In this document: in pieces, positions 2,344-59,721 of the stretch
Layout of the letters: every line of letters begins with the position of its first letter
Position numbering within the stretch: the first letter of the stretch is position 1
Assembly: GCA_038065495.1 (NCBI GenBank)
Contig: JBBTQW010000002.1
Span: 261,373 to 325,372 of the forward strand
Reading direction: 5' to 3'
DNA length: 64,000 nt
Source of the DNA: Patescibacteria group bacterium
GTDB taxonomy: Bacteria; Patescibacteriota; Minisyncoccia; Phycocordibacterales; JACOZG01
Notes under the pieces: model-generated
Told to the model about the DNA's origin: nothing
Seen by the model: the letters and a program-made list of their open reading frames with translations, nothing else
Databases searched by the model: none
Position numbers and translations under genes: made by a program

Positions 2344-3482
2344 CGGATGTCTCTTAGTAGCAAACAAAATTTCCAAAACAACTTACTGTTGAGGCCTTGC
2401 TTACCGGCAGAGAAACCATAAGAATATGGTATTTTAAACCATCCTCCGCTCGCGACGGAAGATCCATAGGCCATGTTCACCGCCCTTACATGATTATTTA
2501 AATTATCTGGAGATCTAAGATTGTTCCACTCTCTCGAAGCAGACAGATGTTGACGGACGATGTCCGAAAACTCTCCCTCGCCTTGATCATAGGCTTGGAA
2601 AAAGACTGAAAAAGACGTCGGTAATAATAATCGAAATGATTCGACTTTTTTGCCAAACACTTTTGAGTCCCAGATTAATGATTTATCAAATTCCTCGATA
2701 AATTGCTGGTGTGACCAGCCGGTAGTAAACTTTACAGCAAATTTATCATTAGAGAACTTAACGTTCTGGGCATTTCTATTTACAAGAGTCTCTTTGGAAA
2801 CAAAACCGTCGAGCTCCATCACCGCTCTGGAGACAAGCACTATCCCTTCTTCAAGAAGAACCGAGAGTTCTTGGATAGCCAAACTTTCGTCTAGAGCAAA
2901 CCAATTCTCGCGCAAACTTTGTATTCTCTGCCCAAAACCGTGATCAATATCTACTCCAGATATTTCCCGCACCATCCACGACGTATACACGAGCGAATAT
3001 AAAGATCCGATCAACTGACGAACGTTTTGCGGTGCTTTCTTAAATTTACTGAAAAGTAATAACTTATTGACTAAAACATCAAACAGGATAAAAGCGAGTG
3101 TCCACTGGCGATTATTCTCCGGTATCGCCAAAAAATTATGCTCTATTCCCGCAATAAGACGAAGATTTGTAGTTTCTTGAGGATAGAGAAAATAAAAATA
3201 TTCAGCAGAACTCTGGCTAAAGCTTAAGTACCGATGAGTAAAGATAAAATTAGCTTTTTCTGATAAAGACCATGGATTACTTAGTGGTTTGGGCGTCAGT
3301 TCGTCCTTGTAGATGAGAACTATGTCTAAGTCCGAGATGCCTGGACACCATTCTCCTCCCATCAGGTAAGCAGCACTTACCGTTGGATTGCTTAAAGCCT
3401 CTTTTCTAATCAAATCAACGCACTTTTCATAGTCGGCTCGCTCTAGGCGTATCGGTAAATTATAACTATTTTTTATATTCAT
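2340..3482 (-). CDS. Nucleotidyltransferase-fold protein, possibly a LicD/fukutin-like phospho-alcohol transferase.
   Basis: GG-x-PGISDLDIV is a minimal polymerase-beta-type NTase motif (G[GS]...D-x-D). The gene is a tandem paralog of the next gene and is 380 aa long. Confidence 0.4.
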   Translation of the reverse strand: MNIKNSYNLPIRLERADYEKCVDLIRKEALSNPTVSAAYLMGGEWCPGISDLDIVLIYKDELTPKPLSNPWSLSEKANFIFTHRYLSFSQSSAEYFYFLYPQETTNLRLIAGIEHNFLAIPENNRQWTLAFILFDVLVNKLLLFSKFKKAPQNVRQLIGSLYSLVYTSWMVREISGVDIDHGFGQRIQSLRENWFALDESLAIQELSVLLEEGIVLVSRAVMELDGFVSKETLVNRNAQNVKFSNDKFAVKFTTGWSHQQFIEEFDKSLIWDSKVFGKKVESFRLLLPTSFSVFFQAYDQGEGEFSDIVRQHLSASREWNNLRSPDNLNNHVRAVNMAYGSSVASGGWFKIPYSYGFSAGKQGLNSKLFWKFCLLLRDIR

Positions 3483-41196: not shown

Positions 41197-42114
41197 TCAA
41201 GACTCCAGAAAAACCGGCTGTAGTGGCTGGTTTTTATTTTTGTCACTAATTTCAAAAACGATTGTGCCAGTTTGATTAGTCTGCAAAGTTTTGATATTTA
41301 AATTCTCGAAAGTGGCGAGAGTGGCTGGATAAGGATGGCCGTAGCGATTATCCGTGCCGACGGAAATTACAGCGTAACTTGGTGAGACTTTTTGCACAAA
41401 GTTTCTGCCCGAAGAAGTTTTGGAACCATGGTGGCCAACTTTGAGAATTATAGCTTCTAGTGATTGCTTATTTTCACTTTCATTTGCGCTGGCGATTAAT
41501 TTGTCTTCCAGATCAGTTTCCATATCGCCCGTGAGCATCGCCAACCCGCGGCCGTTCACAGTCAGCCTAGCCACGACCATGGAGTCGTGAATCTCTTTGG
41601 CACTGCGCCCACGCCAATCCTCGAACGGCGCCAGAATTTCTAAAGCTGCCCCACGCGCCAGACTAATTTTCTCACCACGGAACGCCGGGATAATTGGAAT
41701 TTTCTTTTCTGCCAGCAAGCGATGCCATTCGGCATAAATCGCACTGCTGTAGACGGCACCGGCTTCCATCACCGCGCCCACTTCGTACCGGTTTAGAATT
41801 TCCACCAAGCCCGCGATATGATCCGCGTGCGGATGCGAGACGATTAGCAAATCAAGTGACCGATCAGAGACGGGCATCAACGCTGGTAATCTGGCTAAGA
41901 TTTTCTGATCTGGTCCGCCGTCAATCAAGATCTGATGACCAACCGAATCCTGAATAAAAATTGCATCGCCCTGGCCGATGTCGAGCATCGCGAGCGTCAA
42001 TTTTCCGCCATGCTCGGCCAAAAAAACTGCACGCCAAACAAAAATATTAGCCAGAAATAAAATCAAGACTATCGCCCATTTGATTTTGGTAATTTTTGTT
42101 TTACTAAAAAACAT
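41197..42114 (-). CDS. ComEC C-terminal metallo-beta-lactamase domain protein (separate ORF).
   Basis: N-terminal TM helix, then LDIGQGDAIFIQ...LLIVSHPHADHIAGL (MBL HxHxDH). 305 aa. Confidence 0.75.
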   Translation of the reverse strand: MFFSKTKITKIKWAIVLILFLANIFVWRAVFLAEHGGKLTLAMLDIGQGDAIFIQDSVGHQILIDGGPDQKILARLPALMPVSDRSLDLLIVSHPHADHIAGLVEILNRYEVGAVMEAGAVYSSAIYAEWHRLLAEKKIPIIPAFRGEKISLARGAALEILAPFEDWRGRSAKEIHDSMVVARLTVNGRGLAMLTGDMETDLEDKLIASANESENKQSLEAIILKVGHHGSKTSSGRNFVQKVSPSYAVISVGTDNRYGHPYPATLATFENLNIKTLQTNQTGTIVFEISDKNKNQPLQPVFLES

Positions 42115-42145
42115 TTGACAAATTATAGCATCAGTAATAAGCTGG

Positions 42146-42312
42146 GTCCGACTGGCTGGGAGAAATCAAGTAAGTTTAACCTCCTTTCAGCCCTTGGTTT
42201 CTCACTTCGGTTCTCGCCCCCCGTCGGCGAGGATAGGTGAGGTCCAAACAGCCAGTCGGTGAGCTTGCGAAAGTTGTCTCCGGACAATCGTAACAAGCTC
42301 ATTTTTTTATAA
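42146..42312 (+). ncRNA. Candidate structured small RNA (~165 nt) antisense-oriented between the two comEC ORFs.
   Basis: Possible promoter: TTGACA at 42116..42121, 17-nt spacer, TAAGCT. An 11-bp perfect long-range stem (42148..42158 with 42249..42259) encloses nested helices (gagaaa/uuucuc, a CUUCGG tetraloop, cucgcc/ggcgag). It ends with a 7-bp hairpin (42261..42300) plus a U7 run. Confidence 0.4.
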
Positions 42313-42325
42313 AATAATTTTGTTC

Positions 42326-43789
42326 TTACTTCTTCTGACGATGGAAATAGTAATAAAATATATAAACCAGAACAGTTAACCAAAGTGGAAAGTAAGCAAT
42401 ATTAACAGAAGCAAACGGAATCTGAGCGGCAAATTTCGCTATTAGCAAATCATAACTAAGTAGTAAATAAGCGAGATAAGTGAATGGCGGGAACGGGAGC
42501 AAGAAAACCACAAAGCCGAGTAGCATGGTGAGTGGCACAAAACCCAAAACTAATAAATTAACCGGCAAAGCGATGAGCGAGAGATTGCCCATCTTGTACA
42601 AGATCCACGGTAGAACAGCTAACTGCGCAGAAAGGGTTGTAGTTGTCGTCTCGCGCAAACCAAATCTCTCGGGTAAAAATGCTAAATATTTTTTGATTAG
42701 CGGCGGTCCGGCGATCACACCAAGAGTGGCGAGGAAGGAAAGTTGGAAGCTGATGTCGGAAATTAAAATTTTCGGCTGGAAGAGGATCATCACAAAGGCG
42801 GCAAGGAAGAGCGCATCGAGTGACTGATAAACGCGACCAGTCGCTCGCGCGAGCAAGGCCACCAGGGCCATGATCGCCGCCCGCACGGCCGTGCTACTCG
42901 CGCCCGTGGCGAGCGTGAAGAGGATCACGCTCGCCCCGCCGGCTAGGATGCCGGCGAGCGGCGGCAAAAAGCTCAAGGCTTTGGCCGTCGCCTCGGCGGC
43001 AATGGTAATGTTGTAGCCGGATAACACAATCAAGTGCGACAAGCCAACAGTGCGGAAGCGTTCGCCCCAGTCCTCGCTCAAGCCTTTCGCCCCAATCGCA
43101 ATGCCAGCGAGGAGCGCGCTCTGCGGCTCGGGCAAACTGGACCCGAGCCGCCGCAAAAATAACTTTTTGAAGCCAAAAAGTTTGGCGCGCGCGCTCACCA
43201 CCCAGCTTTCATCCATGCCAATTTTTTCTATCTTGGGGTTACTGATGAGATAATAAATATCGTCTTTGGCCAGATAATTCTGATAATCAAAGGTTCGGCC
43301 CGCGTCGGTCTCAAAGTTTTCTGGTGCTTCCAGCTTGCCACTCACGCGCAAGCGCTCGCCATAAGCATGGCTCGGATATTTCCCGGCTGACAAAATAATT
43401 TTGCCGCCGGATTTCTTGTTTATTTCATCTGGCAAATCTGGTGAGAAAATTAGCCGCAAGCTGCTCTCGCGCTCGTCCGGCTCGCCCACCACCGTGCCAG
43501 TCAATTCTATTTTTTCACCAATAAACTGATCTAGATATTTCTCTGTTGGACCCAACGCCCGCGTGCCCCACATAGCACTGAGCGCAAAAATTAGCAAAAC
43601 AAAACTGACTAACTTAATTAAATTATTATTTTTCCCAGATTTTCTATACAACCAAAAAACTAAAAATAAAATGCTAGAAATTATTACTAGCAAAAATAAA
43701 ACTGTGAAATCAAAACGCACGAGCGTGCCCGCGCCAATGCCTACAAAAAAGCTCGCAAAAAATAAACTACGCCAGTTCATTCCCGCCAT
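42326..43789 (-). CDS. comEC: ComEC/Rec2 DNA-uptake channel (DUF4131 plus competence domain). No MBL domain in this ORF.
   Basis: Polytopic membrane protein. LSHLIVLSGYNITIAA matches the ComEC SHLLAISGLH motif. 487 aa. Confidence 0.75.
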   Translation of the reverse strand: MAGMNWRSLFFASFFVGIGAGTLVRFDFTVLFLLVIISSILFLVFWLYRKSGKNNNLIKLVSFVLLIFALSAMWGTRALGPTEKYLDQFIGEKIELTGTVVGEPDERESSLRLIFSPDLPDEINKKSGGKIILSAGKYPSHAYGERLRVSGKLEAPENFETDAGRTFDYQNYLAKDDIYYLISNPKIEKIGMDESWVVSARAKLFGFKKLFLRRLGSSLPEPQSALLAGIAIGAKGLSEDWGERFRTVGLSHLIVLSGYNITIAAEATAKALSFLPPLAGILAGGASVILFTLATGASSTAVRAAIMALVALLARATGRVYQSLDALFLAAFVMILFQPKILISDISFQLSFLATLGVIAGPPLIKKYLAFLPERFGLRETTTTTLSAQLAVLPWILYKMGNLSLIALPVNLLVLGFVPLTMLLGFVVFLLPFPPFTYLAYLLLSYDLLIAKFAAQIPFASVNIAYFPLWLTVLVYIFYYYFHRQKK

Positions 43790-44216
43790 TCATTTCGTCC
43801 ATCGCCTCATTCGCTAATTTATCAGCCAGTTCATTTTCTTCGCGTCTAATGTGCGTAAAAGTGGCACTCGCCAATTTCAAGTAACTAACAATATCTTTCA
43901 CTTCTGTCGCCAGAACTTTCAATCTTGCTTCTTTCACTTTATACTCACCTCGCAATTGCTTCACGACTAATTCGCTATCAAGTTTTATTTCTAAATCTAA
44001 ATCTTTCAGCTCTTCTTTATCTTTGAATAATTCCCAAACCGTTTGCAGACCAAAAATCAGCGCCTGATATTCGGCCTCGTTATTCGTCAAATCTTTCCCG
44101 AGAAACTTCTTCGCAGTTTGGATCACTTCATCAGTGGCATCAAAAATCGCGACGCCCGCACCCGCTGGTCCGGGATTACCGCGCGCGCCACCATCCGTGT
44201 GTAGAATAATTTTCAT
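43767..44216 (-). CDS. rnhA: Ribonuclease HI.
   Basis: HTDGGARGNPGPAGAGV, NNEAEYQAL, DSELVV, and H...REEN..AD. 149 aa. Confidence 0.82.
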   Translation of the reverse strand: MKIILHTDGGARGNPGPAGAGVAIFDATDEVIQTAKKFLGKDLTNNEAEYQALIFGLQTVWELFKDKEELKDLDLEIKLDSELVVKQLRGEYKVKEARLKVLATEVKDIVSYLKLASATFTHIRREENELADKLANEAMDEMNGGNELA

Positions 44217-44264
44217 GAGTTTAGATTACTTAAACTGTATTGTAAGCGAGAAAGATATTTTAGA

Positions 44265-44472
44265 CAAAAAAAACACTGCTCCCGGGCTGAGGAGCAGTGC
44301 GATTGAAGGTCAGGTTACCCACTATGCGAGCGGCACTTCTCGGCCGAATCACCCATCATCAGTGGCCAAGAGGGGCACGTGCATGCGCTTCAAGCATAAA
44401 CCCTGGGCAAACCTACCGCGTGGAACAAAAGATCGCCGCTCAAGATAATAGCGCGAGGAGAAACTTTGTCAA
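44265..44472 (-). ncRNA. Candidate sRNA (~170 nt) with its own promoter and intrinsic terminator, directly downstream of recJ.
   Basis: Promoter: RC of 44467..44472 is TTGACA (overlapping the recJ stop) and RC of 44445..44450 is TATTAT, 16-nt spacer. The 5' GAGCGGC pairs with a 3' GCCGCUC. GC-rich body with no credible ORF. Terminator: cactgctcc-cgggctga-ggagcagtg (9-bp perfect stem, 44274..44299) plus a U9 run. Confidence 0.45.
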
Positions 44473-46130
44473 GCCGTAATATCCACAATCCGCAACCGCA
44501 ACTCCGGCTGGCGCTTGAAGTAAGATTTTTCTAGTGTCGCCGTGAGATTAATTCTGTTTCCCACTTCTAATTTTACATTTTTAAATTTATCTAAAGCTGT
44601 GAAGAAACCAATCGCGCAGATTATTGCGCCACTACTTTTCTGGAATCCAAGCTCGAGATGAATACCACCGTTGCCGAAAGTCTTAGCCTGCGCGATTTCT
44701 AGATTTGGCAGCGAGAAAACCGGTTTAGGATTGCCCGTCCCAAATGGCGCGAGTTGCTCGAGCAAGTGCCAAGCATATTCGCTCACGTCATCTATCGAGA
44801 TAACGGCATCTGGTTCAACTTGCTCTGGCTTTTTTATTTTCTCTATTTTTTCATAAGCTTTTAGCAATCTTTCTTCTAACTCACCAACTTTCTCTGGCGA
44901 GATTGAGAAACCACCAGCCATCGCATGACCACCGAAAGCGGTGAAAAATTGCTCACCGCCAGCTTCTCTCATTAAATCAACCAGATTCACCGAGCCGTCA
45001 GATCGGCAAGAGCCTTTTATTTCATTCCCATTTGCACCCCACACAAAGACCGGTCGCTGATATTTATTCTCTACCAGCCTGCTCGCACCGAGACCGAGCA
45101 CGCCCGGCGACCAACTCTCATCGCCGATCACAATTACCGCCGGCAAATCAGCTTCAGCAATCGCACTCAATCTGGCTTCGCAAGTCTCCATAATCTTCTC
45201 CACACTCTTCTTACGCTCGCCATTTTTCTTTTCCAAATGTTTCGCCATTTCTTGCGCTTCGGCAATATTGCTTGTAGTGAGGAGAAAAAAAGCTTCAGAG
45301 GCGTGACTCATCCGCCCGGCAGAGTTAATTCTCGGCCCGATCGTAAAGCCGACATCATCTTCGTTCAAGTTCTCTTGCTTCAACTTTGCCGCTGAGAATA
45401 AAGCCCGCAAGCCCGGCCGTCTACTTCTCTGCAACATCAGCAAGCCAAACTTCGCCAGCGCGCGATTTTCGTCGGTCAACGGCACACGATCAGAGATCGT
45501 CGCAATTGCGACTAAATCTAACAGTGTTTTCTCCCAATTTTTATCAAGATTAAACTCGCCACGCCGGATTAGCGCCTGCACGACTTTGAAGATTACGCCC
45601 GAGCCACACAACATTTTATCGGGATAAGTATCTCCCAGCTGTTTCGGATTAATAATCGCGTACGCTTCTGGCAAGGTCTCGGGAGGAAGATGATGATCAG
45701 TAATTATCACATCCAGATTTAACTTATTCGCCAGTTTTACTTCTGTAAAATCAGTAATTCCACAATCGATCGTGATTACCAACTTCGCGCCGTTATCCGC
45801 AAACTCTTGAATACTCTTTTCTGATAAGCCGTAACTTTCCGTATGTCTATTGGGAATATAAACCTCTAGATTTGTATAATTTATTTTTTTGAAAAACTCA
45901 CTCAAGATTACCGCGCCTGGCACGCCGTCAGCATCGTAATCAGAGAAAATTATTATCTTCTCGCTATTTTTTATCGCCAACAAAATTCTCGCAACAACTT
46001 TCTCCATATCTTTTAACAAAAAAGCATCATAAATATCGCGCAAATAGCTTGGCGTGAGAAATTTCTCGCGCTGTTCTGGCGTCTCAATCCCACGCGCGAG
46101 CAAGAGCTGATTTAACAAATCGTCAGACAT
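44469..46130 (-). CDS. recJ: Single-stranded-DNA-specific exonuclease RecJ (DHH/DHHA1).
   Basis: IIIFSDYDADGVPGAVIL...VIITDHH, and 553 aa. Confidence 0.85.
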   Translation of the reverse strand: MSDDLLNQLLLARGIETPEQREKFLTPSYLRDIYDAFLLKDMEKVVARILLAIKNSEKIIIFSDYDADGVPGAVILSEFFKKINYTNLEVYIPNRHTESYGLSEKSIQEFADNGAKLVITIDCGITDFTEVKLANKLNLDVIITDHHLPPETLPEAYAIINPKQLGDTYPDKMLCGSGVIFKVVQALIRRGEFNLDKNWEKTLLDLVAIATISDRVPLTDENRALAKFGLLMLQRSRRPGLRALFSAAKLKQENLNEDDVGFTIGPRINSAGRMSHASEAFFLLTTSNIAEAQEMAKHLEKKNGERKKSVEKIMETCEARLSAIAEADLPAVIVIGDESWSPGVLGLGASRLVENKYQRPVFVWGANGNEIKGSCRSDGSVNLVDLMREAGGEQFFTAFGGHAMAGGFSISPEKVGELEERLLKAYEKIEKIKKPEQVEPDAVISIDDVSEYAWHLLEQLAPFGTGNPKPVFSLPNLEIAQAKTFGNGGIHLELGFQKSSGAIICAIGFFTALDKFKNVKLEVGNRINLTATLEKSYFKRQPELRLRIVDITA

Positions 46131-59208: not shown

Positions 59209-59721
59209 CTACTTCACTTCAACGAAGCAGAGCAGAATACCCCCAACCCACTCGGTTTCTCCGTCAATAACCATCGACTGAAAAACTGGATTGCTTTGAA
59301 TCTTCGTACTGGGCAGGTTGTTATGATCATTTGAATCATAAGAAAGGGCGTGATAGCCGTGGTAACAGCTTGAACACTCCTCAAAGTTTCCCTGCTCTTT
59401 GAGCAAGTCCAAACCAAGTTGACCCAGCAAGACACCTCCTTTGAGGTTAATGAACGCGAGGTGCTCTTGGCAAGTACTAGTCAGACCATTTCTAGAGTGG
59501 CAGTAGCCACTCACACTAAACTTACGTCCGTCGGGGTGCGTAACAATGCCGAGATTAAGATCAGCCACAAGCGCGAACCTATCCGCCAGAGGGATGGATT
59601 CATCGATGACCTTCTGCAAGAAGTCACTGATCTTTCTGGGATCTCTCTTGCCGTCGAGCACAAGCTTATTAACACTAGCTTGCACTTTCCACAAACGTAC
59701 GATTTCGGAGTCACTACTCAT
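59209..59721 (-). CDS. Hypothetical Cys/His-rich protein (170 aa).
   Basis: CHSRNG...CQEH...ECSSCYHGYH may form a metal-binding cluster. No family recognised. Confidence 0.45.
   Translation of the reverse strand: MSSDSEIVRLWKVQASVNKLVLDGKRDPRKISDFLQKVIDESIPLADRFALVADLNLGIVTHPDGRKFSVSGYCHSRNGLTSTCQEHLAFINLKGGVLLGQLGLDLLKEQGNFEECSSCYHGYHALSYDSNDHNNLPSTKIQSNPVFQSMVIDGETEWVGGILLCFVEVK

Follow-up and report, generated by a model that had tools for sequence, protein, structure and literature searches.

A candidate small RNA gene in the variable recJ-rnhA spacer of a narrow Patescibacteria lineage

Introduction

The GC-rich sequence just 3′ of recJ in an uncultured groundwater Patescibacteria bacterium raises the question of whether it encodes a small RNA (sRNA) of its own and, if so, of what kind. 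Patescibacteria have tiny genomes and few regulators. Our search of the literature on this group (the candidate phyla radiation) found almost nothing on regulatory RNAs and nothing on sRNAs or 6S RNA. A preliminary description, made from the DNA letters alone, had proposed an sRNA candidate at this locus. The unit to which it pointed stands up to comparison with related genomes, although it must be read on the minus strand and its predicted fold differs from the one first drawn.

Results

The candidate has its own promoter and terminator

The window, by which we mean the whole 64-kb stretch of DNA analysed, lies in the Patescibacteria, as judged from its RecJ homologues, which carry Patescibacteria group, Nomurabacteria, Vogelbacteria and Paceibacterota labels. 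The gene order on the minus strand is tpiA, pgk, (HIT, on the plus strand), recJ, the candidate RNA, rnhA and comEC, with the candidate unit running from about 44472 down to 44265. The RNA region has a GC content of ~55%, compared with 47% for the window and ~40% for the flanking coding sequence. The features of the transcription unit and its two neighbours are as follows.

44469 to 46130, minus strand: recJ, 553 aa (open reading frame list; Pfam DHH, DHHA1 and RecJ_OB; a 100% identical protein is named RecJ by NCBI)
44467 to 44472, minus strand: −35 hexamer TTGACA (promoter scan; TTGACA or TTTACA in 5/5 copies)
44445 to 44450, minus strand: −10 hexamer TATTAT after a 16-nt spacer (promoter scan; TATGAT, TATACT or TATGGT at the same distance in relatives)
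44265 to 44440, minus strand: predicted sRNA transcript of ~175 nt, its ends placed by the promoter and terminator
44265 to 44300, minus strand: intrinsic terminator, a stem-loop at 44300-44273 followed by T8 (terminator scan: 11 pairs, 6-nt loop)
44239 to 44267, minus strand: promoter-like site of rnhA, TTGTCT-17-TACAAT, overlapping the T-tail of the sRNA terminator (promoter scan)
43767 to 44216, minus strand: rnhA, RNase HI family, 149 aa, the downstream neighbour (Pfam RNase_H and RVT_3; homologues named ribonuclease HI family)

The TTGACA-16-TATTAT promoter that had been noticed at the end of recJ matches 11 of 12 consensus positions and was the top site in the 2 kb covered by the promoter scan; the recJ stop codon TGA (44471-44469) falls inside its −35 hexamer. 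Transcription would start at A44440 or G44439, 5-6 nt past the −10 box, giving an RNA close to the ~170 nt first estimated. The absence of a credible frame from that transcript also held, since comparison across copies revealed no credible or conserved ORF on either strand of the sRNA. The terminator had been described as a perfect 9-bp hairpin followed by U9; the nine Watson-Crick pairs are there, but the stem gains a G-U pair at either end and the run is T8. This hairpin is intact in every minimum free energy (MFE) and centroid fold and ends ~50 nt before rnhA. The sequence TTCTCGCTTACAAT upstream of rnhA is conserved in relatives with the RNA and without it alike.

Farther downstream, comEC consists of two separate ORFs on the minus strand (window 41197-43789), one with the Competence and DUF4131 domains (42326-43789) and one with the metallo-beta-lactamase part (41197-42114), a split that is also present in relatives. 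A stretch within comEC (42750-43200) reaches 60-70% GC against the window mean of 47%.

Five homologous copies share the unit

We compared loci with RecJ homologues of 64-89% identity, together with two close RNase H homologues, and found four homologous copies besides that of the window. A long form is present in the window and in L012 (RecJ 84%), and a short form of ~130 nt in L014 (RecJ 83%), L010 (RecJ 89%) and L023 (RNase H 92%). All five have the promoter (TTGACA or TTTACA, a spacer of 16-17 nt, and TATTAT, TATGAT, TATACT or TATGGT), a homologous terminator with hairpin and T-run, a GGGUY..UAAGCUUGAGC block, an invariant UCGC and CCYUCAWYC before the terminator. The preliminary proposal of a promoter-to-terminator sRNA gene is thus supported by conservation of promoter, RNA body and terminator in five copies. 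In L023 the promoter stands behind an upstream terminator hairpin and not behind recJ, suggesting that the unit does not depend on recJ transcription and arguing that the sRNA would be transcribed independently.

Gene callers place a 74-aa gene over the RNA in L010 (4213-4437) and a 68-aa gene in L023 (1224-1430), which would make the unit a small-protein gene. The ATG frame of these two copies, however, is not preceded by a Shine-Dalgarno (SD) sequence and reads on across the terminator. In L014 the frame ends after 8 codons, and there is no start codon at that place in the window or in L012. Substitutions among the copies preserve base pairs and not codons, so that a coding function is almost certainly not what the unit provides.

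Covariation supports two helices of the predicted fold

The window copy has the following predicted parts, in 5′ to 3′ order along the RNA.

44418 to 44440, minus strand: variable 5′ tail with GAGCGGC (44441-44435) and with the block GAUCUUUUGUU, which L012 also has (alignments A1 and A2)
44404 to 44417, minus strand: 5′ strand of P1, GGUAGGUUUGCCCA (covariation with 44321-44308)
44396 to 44403, minus strand: J1/2, the 5′ side of an internal loop or bulge, GGGUUUAU (alignments A1-A3; GGGUY..UAW motif kept in all copies)
44387 to 44395, minus strand: 5′ strand of P2, GC-UU-GA-A-GC, within the best-conserved block (partner strand 44331-44326; both sides changed in two of the pairs)
44332 to 44386, minus strand: long-form apical domain, comprising the two palindromes GCAUGC and GCACGUGC, a bulge rich in C (GUGCCCC) and hairpin P3 (MFE folds)
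44371 to 44364 with 44345 to 44338, minus strand: hairpin P3, UCUUGGCC with GGCCGAGA (kept in L012 with U-A/U-G changes)
44326 to 44331, minus strand: 3′ strand of P2, GCUCGC, with UCGC invariant, overlapping the GCCGCUC of the preliminary description (alignment, pair counts and RNAalifold)
44308 to 44321, minus strand: 3′ strand of P1, UGGGUAACCUGACC, whose plus-strand complement includes AGGTCAGG (covariation)
44301 to 44307, minus strand: single-stranded pyrimidine-rich linker UUCAAUC (unpaired in all folds; conserved block in A1-A3)

The architecture common to all folded copies is a 5′ tail, P1, an asymmetric internal loop, P2, a variable apical part, the linker and the terminator. P1 has 10-13 bp, the asymmetric loop 4-13 nt on one side and 4-9 nt on the other, and P2 6-11 bp, followed by the apical hairpin; the linker and the end of P1 together form the conserved CCYUYAWYC (also given as CCYUCAWYC) before the terminator. 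Short forms are without the 5′ tail listed above and measure only ~85 nt from the start to the end of P1. The string GCCGCUCGC is the P2 3′ strand, and its partner is the nearby GCUUGAAGC.

The window sequence alone folds no better than its shuffles (z = −1.48 for the RNA strand and −1.11 for the other strand), so the evidence for structure comes from the comparison with relatives. Raw-sequence MAFFT misaligned the P2 3′ strand between long and short forms, and we therefore used a hand-curated, N-padded alignment (A2 and A3), built segment by segment on structure and checked against every sequence. In this alignment, which is fitted to the structure and whose five sequences amount to ~3-4 independent lineages, 98.9% of the cells of the 19 P1 and P2 pairs form standard pairs, and 7 of the 19 pairs changed on both sides in a compensatory manner. 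Pair 4 of P1, for example, is A-U, G-C or U-A, and pair 7 is U-A, G-C or A-U. None of 500 shuffles reached the observed P1/P2 covariation score, and sliding the partner strand by 1-3 columns as a control lowered pairing to 30-45%. RNAalifold recovered the same P1 and P2 from the hand-curated alignment. On the unfitted MAFFT alignment of the two long forms it recovered P1 again, with compensatory changes, and preferred a different interior made of a GGG:CCC hairpin and P3. The preliminary description had called for a check of structural conservation in relatives; P1 and P2 are kept in five copies, and covariation in this hand-fitted, five-sequence alignment supports a conserved secondary structure for these two predicted helices.

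The interior of the window copy is nearly isoenergetic, at −63.7 kcal/mol for the rod with P2 and −65.2 kcal/mol for the three-way junction of the MFE fold. P1 appears secure in these models, and the long-form interior may switch between the rod and an alternative fold. The palindromic core first remarked on is present, as overlapping GCAUGC and GCACGUGC at about 44386-44375; GCACGUGCCC is conserved in L012, whereas GCAUGC is not.

The helix that had been proposed to close the RNA, between GAGCGGC (44441-44435) and GCCGCUC (44334-44328), joins segments that are indeed complementary but is not a real closing helix. Its probability in the ensemble is 0.026 and it is incompatible with the covarying P1. 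It is also specific to the window, as the 5′ end of L012 offers no complementary sequence and the short forms could not make it at all; moreover, ~10% of shuffles contain a perfect 7-mer match of this kind between tail and body. The idea of an end-to-end rod survives in outline, since the RNA is broadly rod-like, with closure by P1 (44417-44404 with 44321-44308) and continuation by P2.

The RNA matches no known family

Rfam 15 gave no match at gathering score in the whole 64-kb window. At E ≤ 10, both strands of 44100-44600 gave none except an irrelevant truncated match inside recJ, indicating that the unit is not a known family that has been misread. The preliminary description had raised the prospect of a known family on the other strand, and this search found none there. 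Thirteen related loci (six at E ≤ 1 and seven at E ≤ 0.1) gave nothing of note save two elements of L023 that lie outside the short-form RNA and upstream of it. The first, at L023:1047-1101 on the plus strand, matches the type III hammerhead ribozyme with 42.9 bits (E = 2.6e-6), a little short of the gathering score of 48.5, and its CUGAUGAG...GAAAC core is visible. The second, at L023:518-651 on the plus strand, resembles a miniature tmRNA of 134 nt (RF00023); at 31.7 bits (E = 2.7e-9) it too stays below the gathering score, and ARAGORN did not call it. Their occurrence among orphan small ORFs suggests mobile or satellite-like DNA in the recJ-rnhA region.

From these searches, assignment to 6S, SRP, RNase P, tmRNA, riboswitches or known ribozymes is unsupported. 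In 6S RNA, a long rod equivalent to ~50-60 bp is interrupted at its centre by a large bubble, in mimicry of an open promoter. The resemblance to 6S or SRP-like rods that had been remarked on did not hold: neither the RNA nor its homologous loci match a 6S covariance model, and the rod of ~30 bp, with only a small asymmetric loop, is too short for such mimicry. Small and large SRP models likewise found nothing on either strand, and the RNA is without domain IV loops and a GNAR tetraloop. The SRP-like string noticed on the opposite strand does exist, as AGGTCAGG at 44307-44314 of the plus strand, but it is merely the complement of the P1 3′ strand. RNase P RNA, tmRNA and tRNA were not found by Rfam, and ARAGORN called nothing in the whole 64-kb window, neither a tRNA gene nor a tmRNA. 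We also rejected a hammerhead reading of CUGAUGA in the window P3 loop, which is not conserved in L012 and has no Rfam match, and a reading of P2 (GAGC...GUUC) as group II intron domain V, which no model supports.

A highly diverged housekeeping rod, either 6S-like and binding RNA polymerase or SRP-like, would account for the rod with its internal loop, the GC content above that of the flanks and the promoter, and no 6S RNA has turned up in the literature on this phylum. Against this, Rfam at E ≤ 10 matched neither strand, the RNA has no SRP domain IV motif, the ~30-bp rod with its 4-13 / 4-9 nt loop is too short to imitate an open promoter, and close relatives with the same gene order have unrelated cassettes in place of the RNA. 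A housekeeping RNA would be expected to be stably present across related genomes. The RNA instead comes and goes among close relatives, which argues against such a role, and we consider a housekeeping identity extremely unlikely.

The recJ-rnhA spacer is a hypervariable slot

A covariance model built on the RNA core (R1), run with default filters and with filters off, matched only the five copies and two truncated ones from the L010 population (L011 and L029). Homologous copies scored 47-102 bits, with the window RNA matched at 44421-44295 (76.9 bits), and neither blastn-short nor R1, with filters on or off, found a further copy in the 64-kb window. Seven loci are without the RNA despite tpiA-pgk-HIT-recJ-rnhA-comEC synteny (L013, L015, L016, L018, L019, L020 and L024). 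GenBank phages and PLSDB plasmids gave no match to the RNA, and in viral contigs, searched for two conserved blocks, nothing turned up beyond chance matches within genes. A metagenome scan with the terminator tail and rnhA promoter as anchor returned one true relative, from an already-sampled population, and three chance matches. A RecJ scan of genome contigs returned only ~50%-identical relatives, all without the RNA, in which recJ is still followed by rnhA, either directly after the recJ stop (L002-L004) or after ~100-270 nt of unrelated sequence (L001 and L005). The five copies come mostly from groundwater metagenomes. Sources of relatives are the assemblies ERZ1292623 and ERZ1292627 of Hainich H51 groundwater and the Logan runs SRR15507657 and ERR3478686.

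The spacer between recJ and rnhA (44217-44468 in the window) has unrelated contents in L010, L013, L015, L016/17, L018, L019, L020-22, L023 and L024. In L013, L015, L016, L019 and L024 it is filled by orphan genes for small proteins, which have strong promoters and leaders with an SD sequence, and in L018 by a TrmB-type regulator; the small proteins had no Pfam match above cut-off and no PHROG match. In L010 and L023, a second cassette with its own promoter, encoding an orphan, lipoprotein-like small protein, lies between the RNA and rnhA. The spacer is thus a hypervariable slot, with unrelated orphan cassettes in sister lineages.

Several other features of the slot were observed. Each of its orphan small-protein genes has a strong TTGACA-17-TATAAT promoter, and several cassette leaders begin with AGGGGUUGGA, which resembles GGUUGGAU of the sRNA P1 5′ strand. 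A different GC-rich, promoter-to-terminator and apparently non-coding unit of ~190 nt, with a folding energy of −85.8 kcal/mol, occupies the same slot in the lineage with 64% RecJ identity (L020:4215-4440, identical in L021 and L022); it matches neither Rfam nor R1. In L018, a long GC-rich stretch without a called gene (2670-3330) follows the TrmB-family gene that comes after recJ; it has a promoter-like TTGACA...TATATAC on the reverse strand, together with a shared bidirectional terminator. This stretch, which had no Rfam match at E ≤ 0.1, may be another unannotated RNA.

The layout of promoter, structured RNA, terminator and gene is also that of a cis-acting 5′ leader, a riboswitch or protein-dependent attenuator that would control read-through into rnhA-comEC, and the two near-isoenergetic interiors of the long form, with and without P2 enforced, fit such a switch. 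The unit directly downstream of the RNA, however, differs between copies, being rnhA in the window, L012 and L014 and the lipoprotein-like cassette, with its own promoter, in L010 and L023, which argues against a leader. In addition, rnhA keeps a conserved promoter of its own, folding and inspection by eye revealed no anti-terminator alternative among the MFE and centroid folds, and no riboswitch family in Rfam matches. We regard a leader as highly unlikely.

The RNA could also be a relic, or neutral cargo of a swappable cassette, that is transcribed but does nothing of consequence beyond ending recJ transcription and keeping it apart from rnhA. The very narrow family, the unrelated small-protein cassettes, different non-coding RNA or TrmB regulator in the same slot of sister lineages, and the more distant relatives with nothing between recJ and rnhA would all fit. 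Yet the compensatory changes in seven helix pairs indicate selection on the RNA fold and not merely on a terminator, and the promoter is conserved in all copies, making neutral cargo quite unlikely.

Pairing with initiation regions of the window is no better than that of shuffled RNAs

A pyrimidine-rich apical stretch is shared by the short forms (UACCUCCUUUCC in L010 and L023, UUUUCCUUUC in L014) and appears in the long forms as CCCCUCUUGG or CCCGUUCUUGG, partly buried in P3. The short-form loop UACCUCCUUUCC resembles the anti-SD tail of 16S rRNA. Genes of the window, however, almost never have an SD sequence before the first ATG, and many look leaderless. TATAAT lies 7-9 nt before the ATG of recJ (46130) and of the genes starting at 42114, 38207 and 56189 (all on the minus strand), which implies that leaderless mRNAs are the default in this organism. 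In the window, the minus-strand gene with its start at 59721 is alone in showing a clear AGGAG, and clear SD sequences are confined to accessory cassette genes. A general anti-SD mechanism was rejected on these grounds, and a general SD-masking role is unlikely.

Among 58 translation-initiation regions in the 64-kb window, the best duplex with the sRNA equalled the mean for shuffled RNAs, and the top match proved artefactual, coming from a spurious ORF that runs antisense to the sRNA. Pairing of the sRNA with the adjacent cassette leader in L010 and L023 was also no better than with shuffles.

Discussion

Here, we describe an RNA unit that is probably an independently transcribed, non-coding and structured sRNA gene, specific to a narrow lineage of Patescibacteria. 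At the level of sequence, our comparison establishes its predicted promoter and terminator, its non-coding status, the homology of its five copies and the covariation of P1 and P2. In the arrangement that we propose, a sigma-70-type promoter overlapping the recJ stop would start an RNA of ~175 nt, an intrinsic terminator would end it ~50 nt before rnhA, and rnhA would use its own promoter. The RNA would fold into an irregular rod closed by a 13-bp P1. Next to P1 would come the G-rich bulge or loop with its conserved GGGUY..UAW, then P2 and an apical domain that varies between copies and whose 5′ side is rich in pyrimidines, with the CCYUCAWYC linker left single-stranded between P1 and the terminator.

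The RNA is an accessory one in a hypervariable cassette slot and not a housekeeping one, and its absence from sister lineages and its two very different sizes suggest that it may be dispensable. Its role is most likely that of a lineage-restricted, trans-acting regulatory RNA. We speculate that the conserved unpaired elements base-pair with mRNA elsewhere in the genome, a tentative suggestion that we would not call probable; that they bind a protein seems rather unlikely. A further reading takes the recJ-rnhA spacer as a dedicated slot for exchangeable promoter-payload-terminator cassettes, with the RNA as a payload that has a specific accessory function. It might, for example, regulate those few cassette genes that were acquired horizontally and have an SD sequence in an otherwise leaderless genome, or it might serve in defence against phages or in interaction with the host. 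We find this distinctly unlikely, but if true it would mean that ultra-small episymbiotic bacteria have a functional RNA class not described before, in a variable locus that is itself of a new kind. As a lineage-specific sRNA gene, the unit would rank among the few concrete sRNA candidates for Patescibacteria, with a structure supported by covariation, and its position in a slot where cassettes are swapped points to a previously unnoticed hotspot of accessory content. With a very narrow distribution of five copies and no functional lead, its practical importance is limited for now.

Comparison with known systems helps to place the candidate. It resembles attenuation leaders and riboswitches in the order of promoter, structured domain closed by P1, terminator and gene, but its downstream gene varies and has a separate promoter, and neither an anti-terminator nor a match to a known aptamer is evident. 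With 6S RNA (RF00013 and relatives) it shares a rod-like shape, an internal loop, its own promoter and a similar total length (~175 nt). Unlike 6S, its rod is about half as long, its loop is small and asymmetric, its terminator hairpin is a separate 3′ module, it is not conserved among close relatives and no model matches it. The bacterial small SRP RNA, 4.5S, is likewise a GC-rich, hairpin-like molecule, and the plus strand of the candidate has an SRP-recalling string, AGGUCAGG, which is here a mere complement of the P1 3′ strand. The candidate is also like trans-encoded sRNAs with sigma-70 promoters and intrinsic terminators, such as the C-rich-loop RsaE/RoxS of Firmicutes, in being a stand-alone, non-coding promoter-to-terminator unit of 130-200 nt. 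Its conserved helices, its unpaired segments rich in pyrimidines and the single-stranded stretch before its terminator add to this likeness. It departs from these in having no sequence or covariance-model likeness to any Rfam sRNA, in the partial burial of the long-form pyrimidine stretch, and in a host whose housekeeping genes are without SD sequences, which leaves, at most, a few accessory genes with SD sequences open to SD masking. Judged by its sequence, the RNA would be a stand-alone bacterial sRNA gene of a known kind that matches no described family, and it has several features of such genes: a conserved promoter, an intrinsic terminator, non-coding sequence and a covarying structure.
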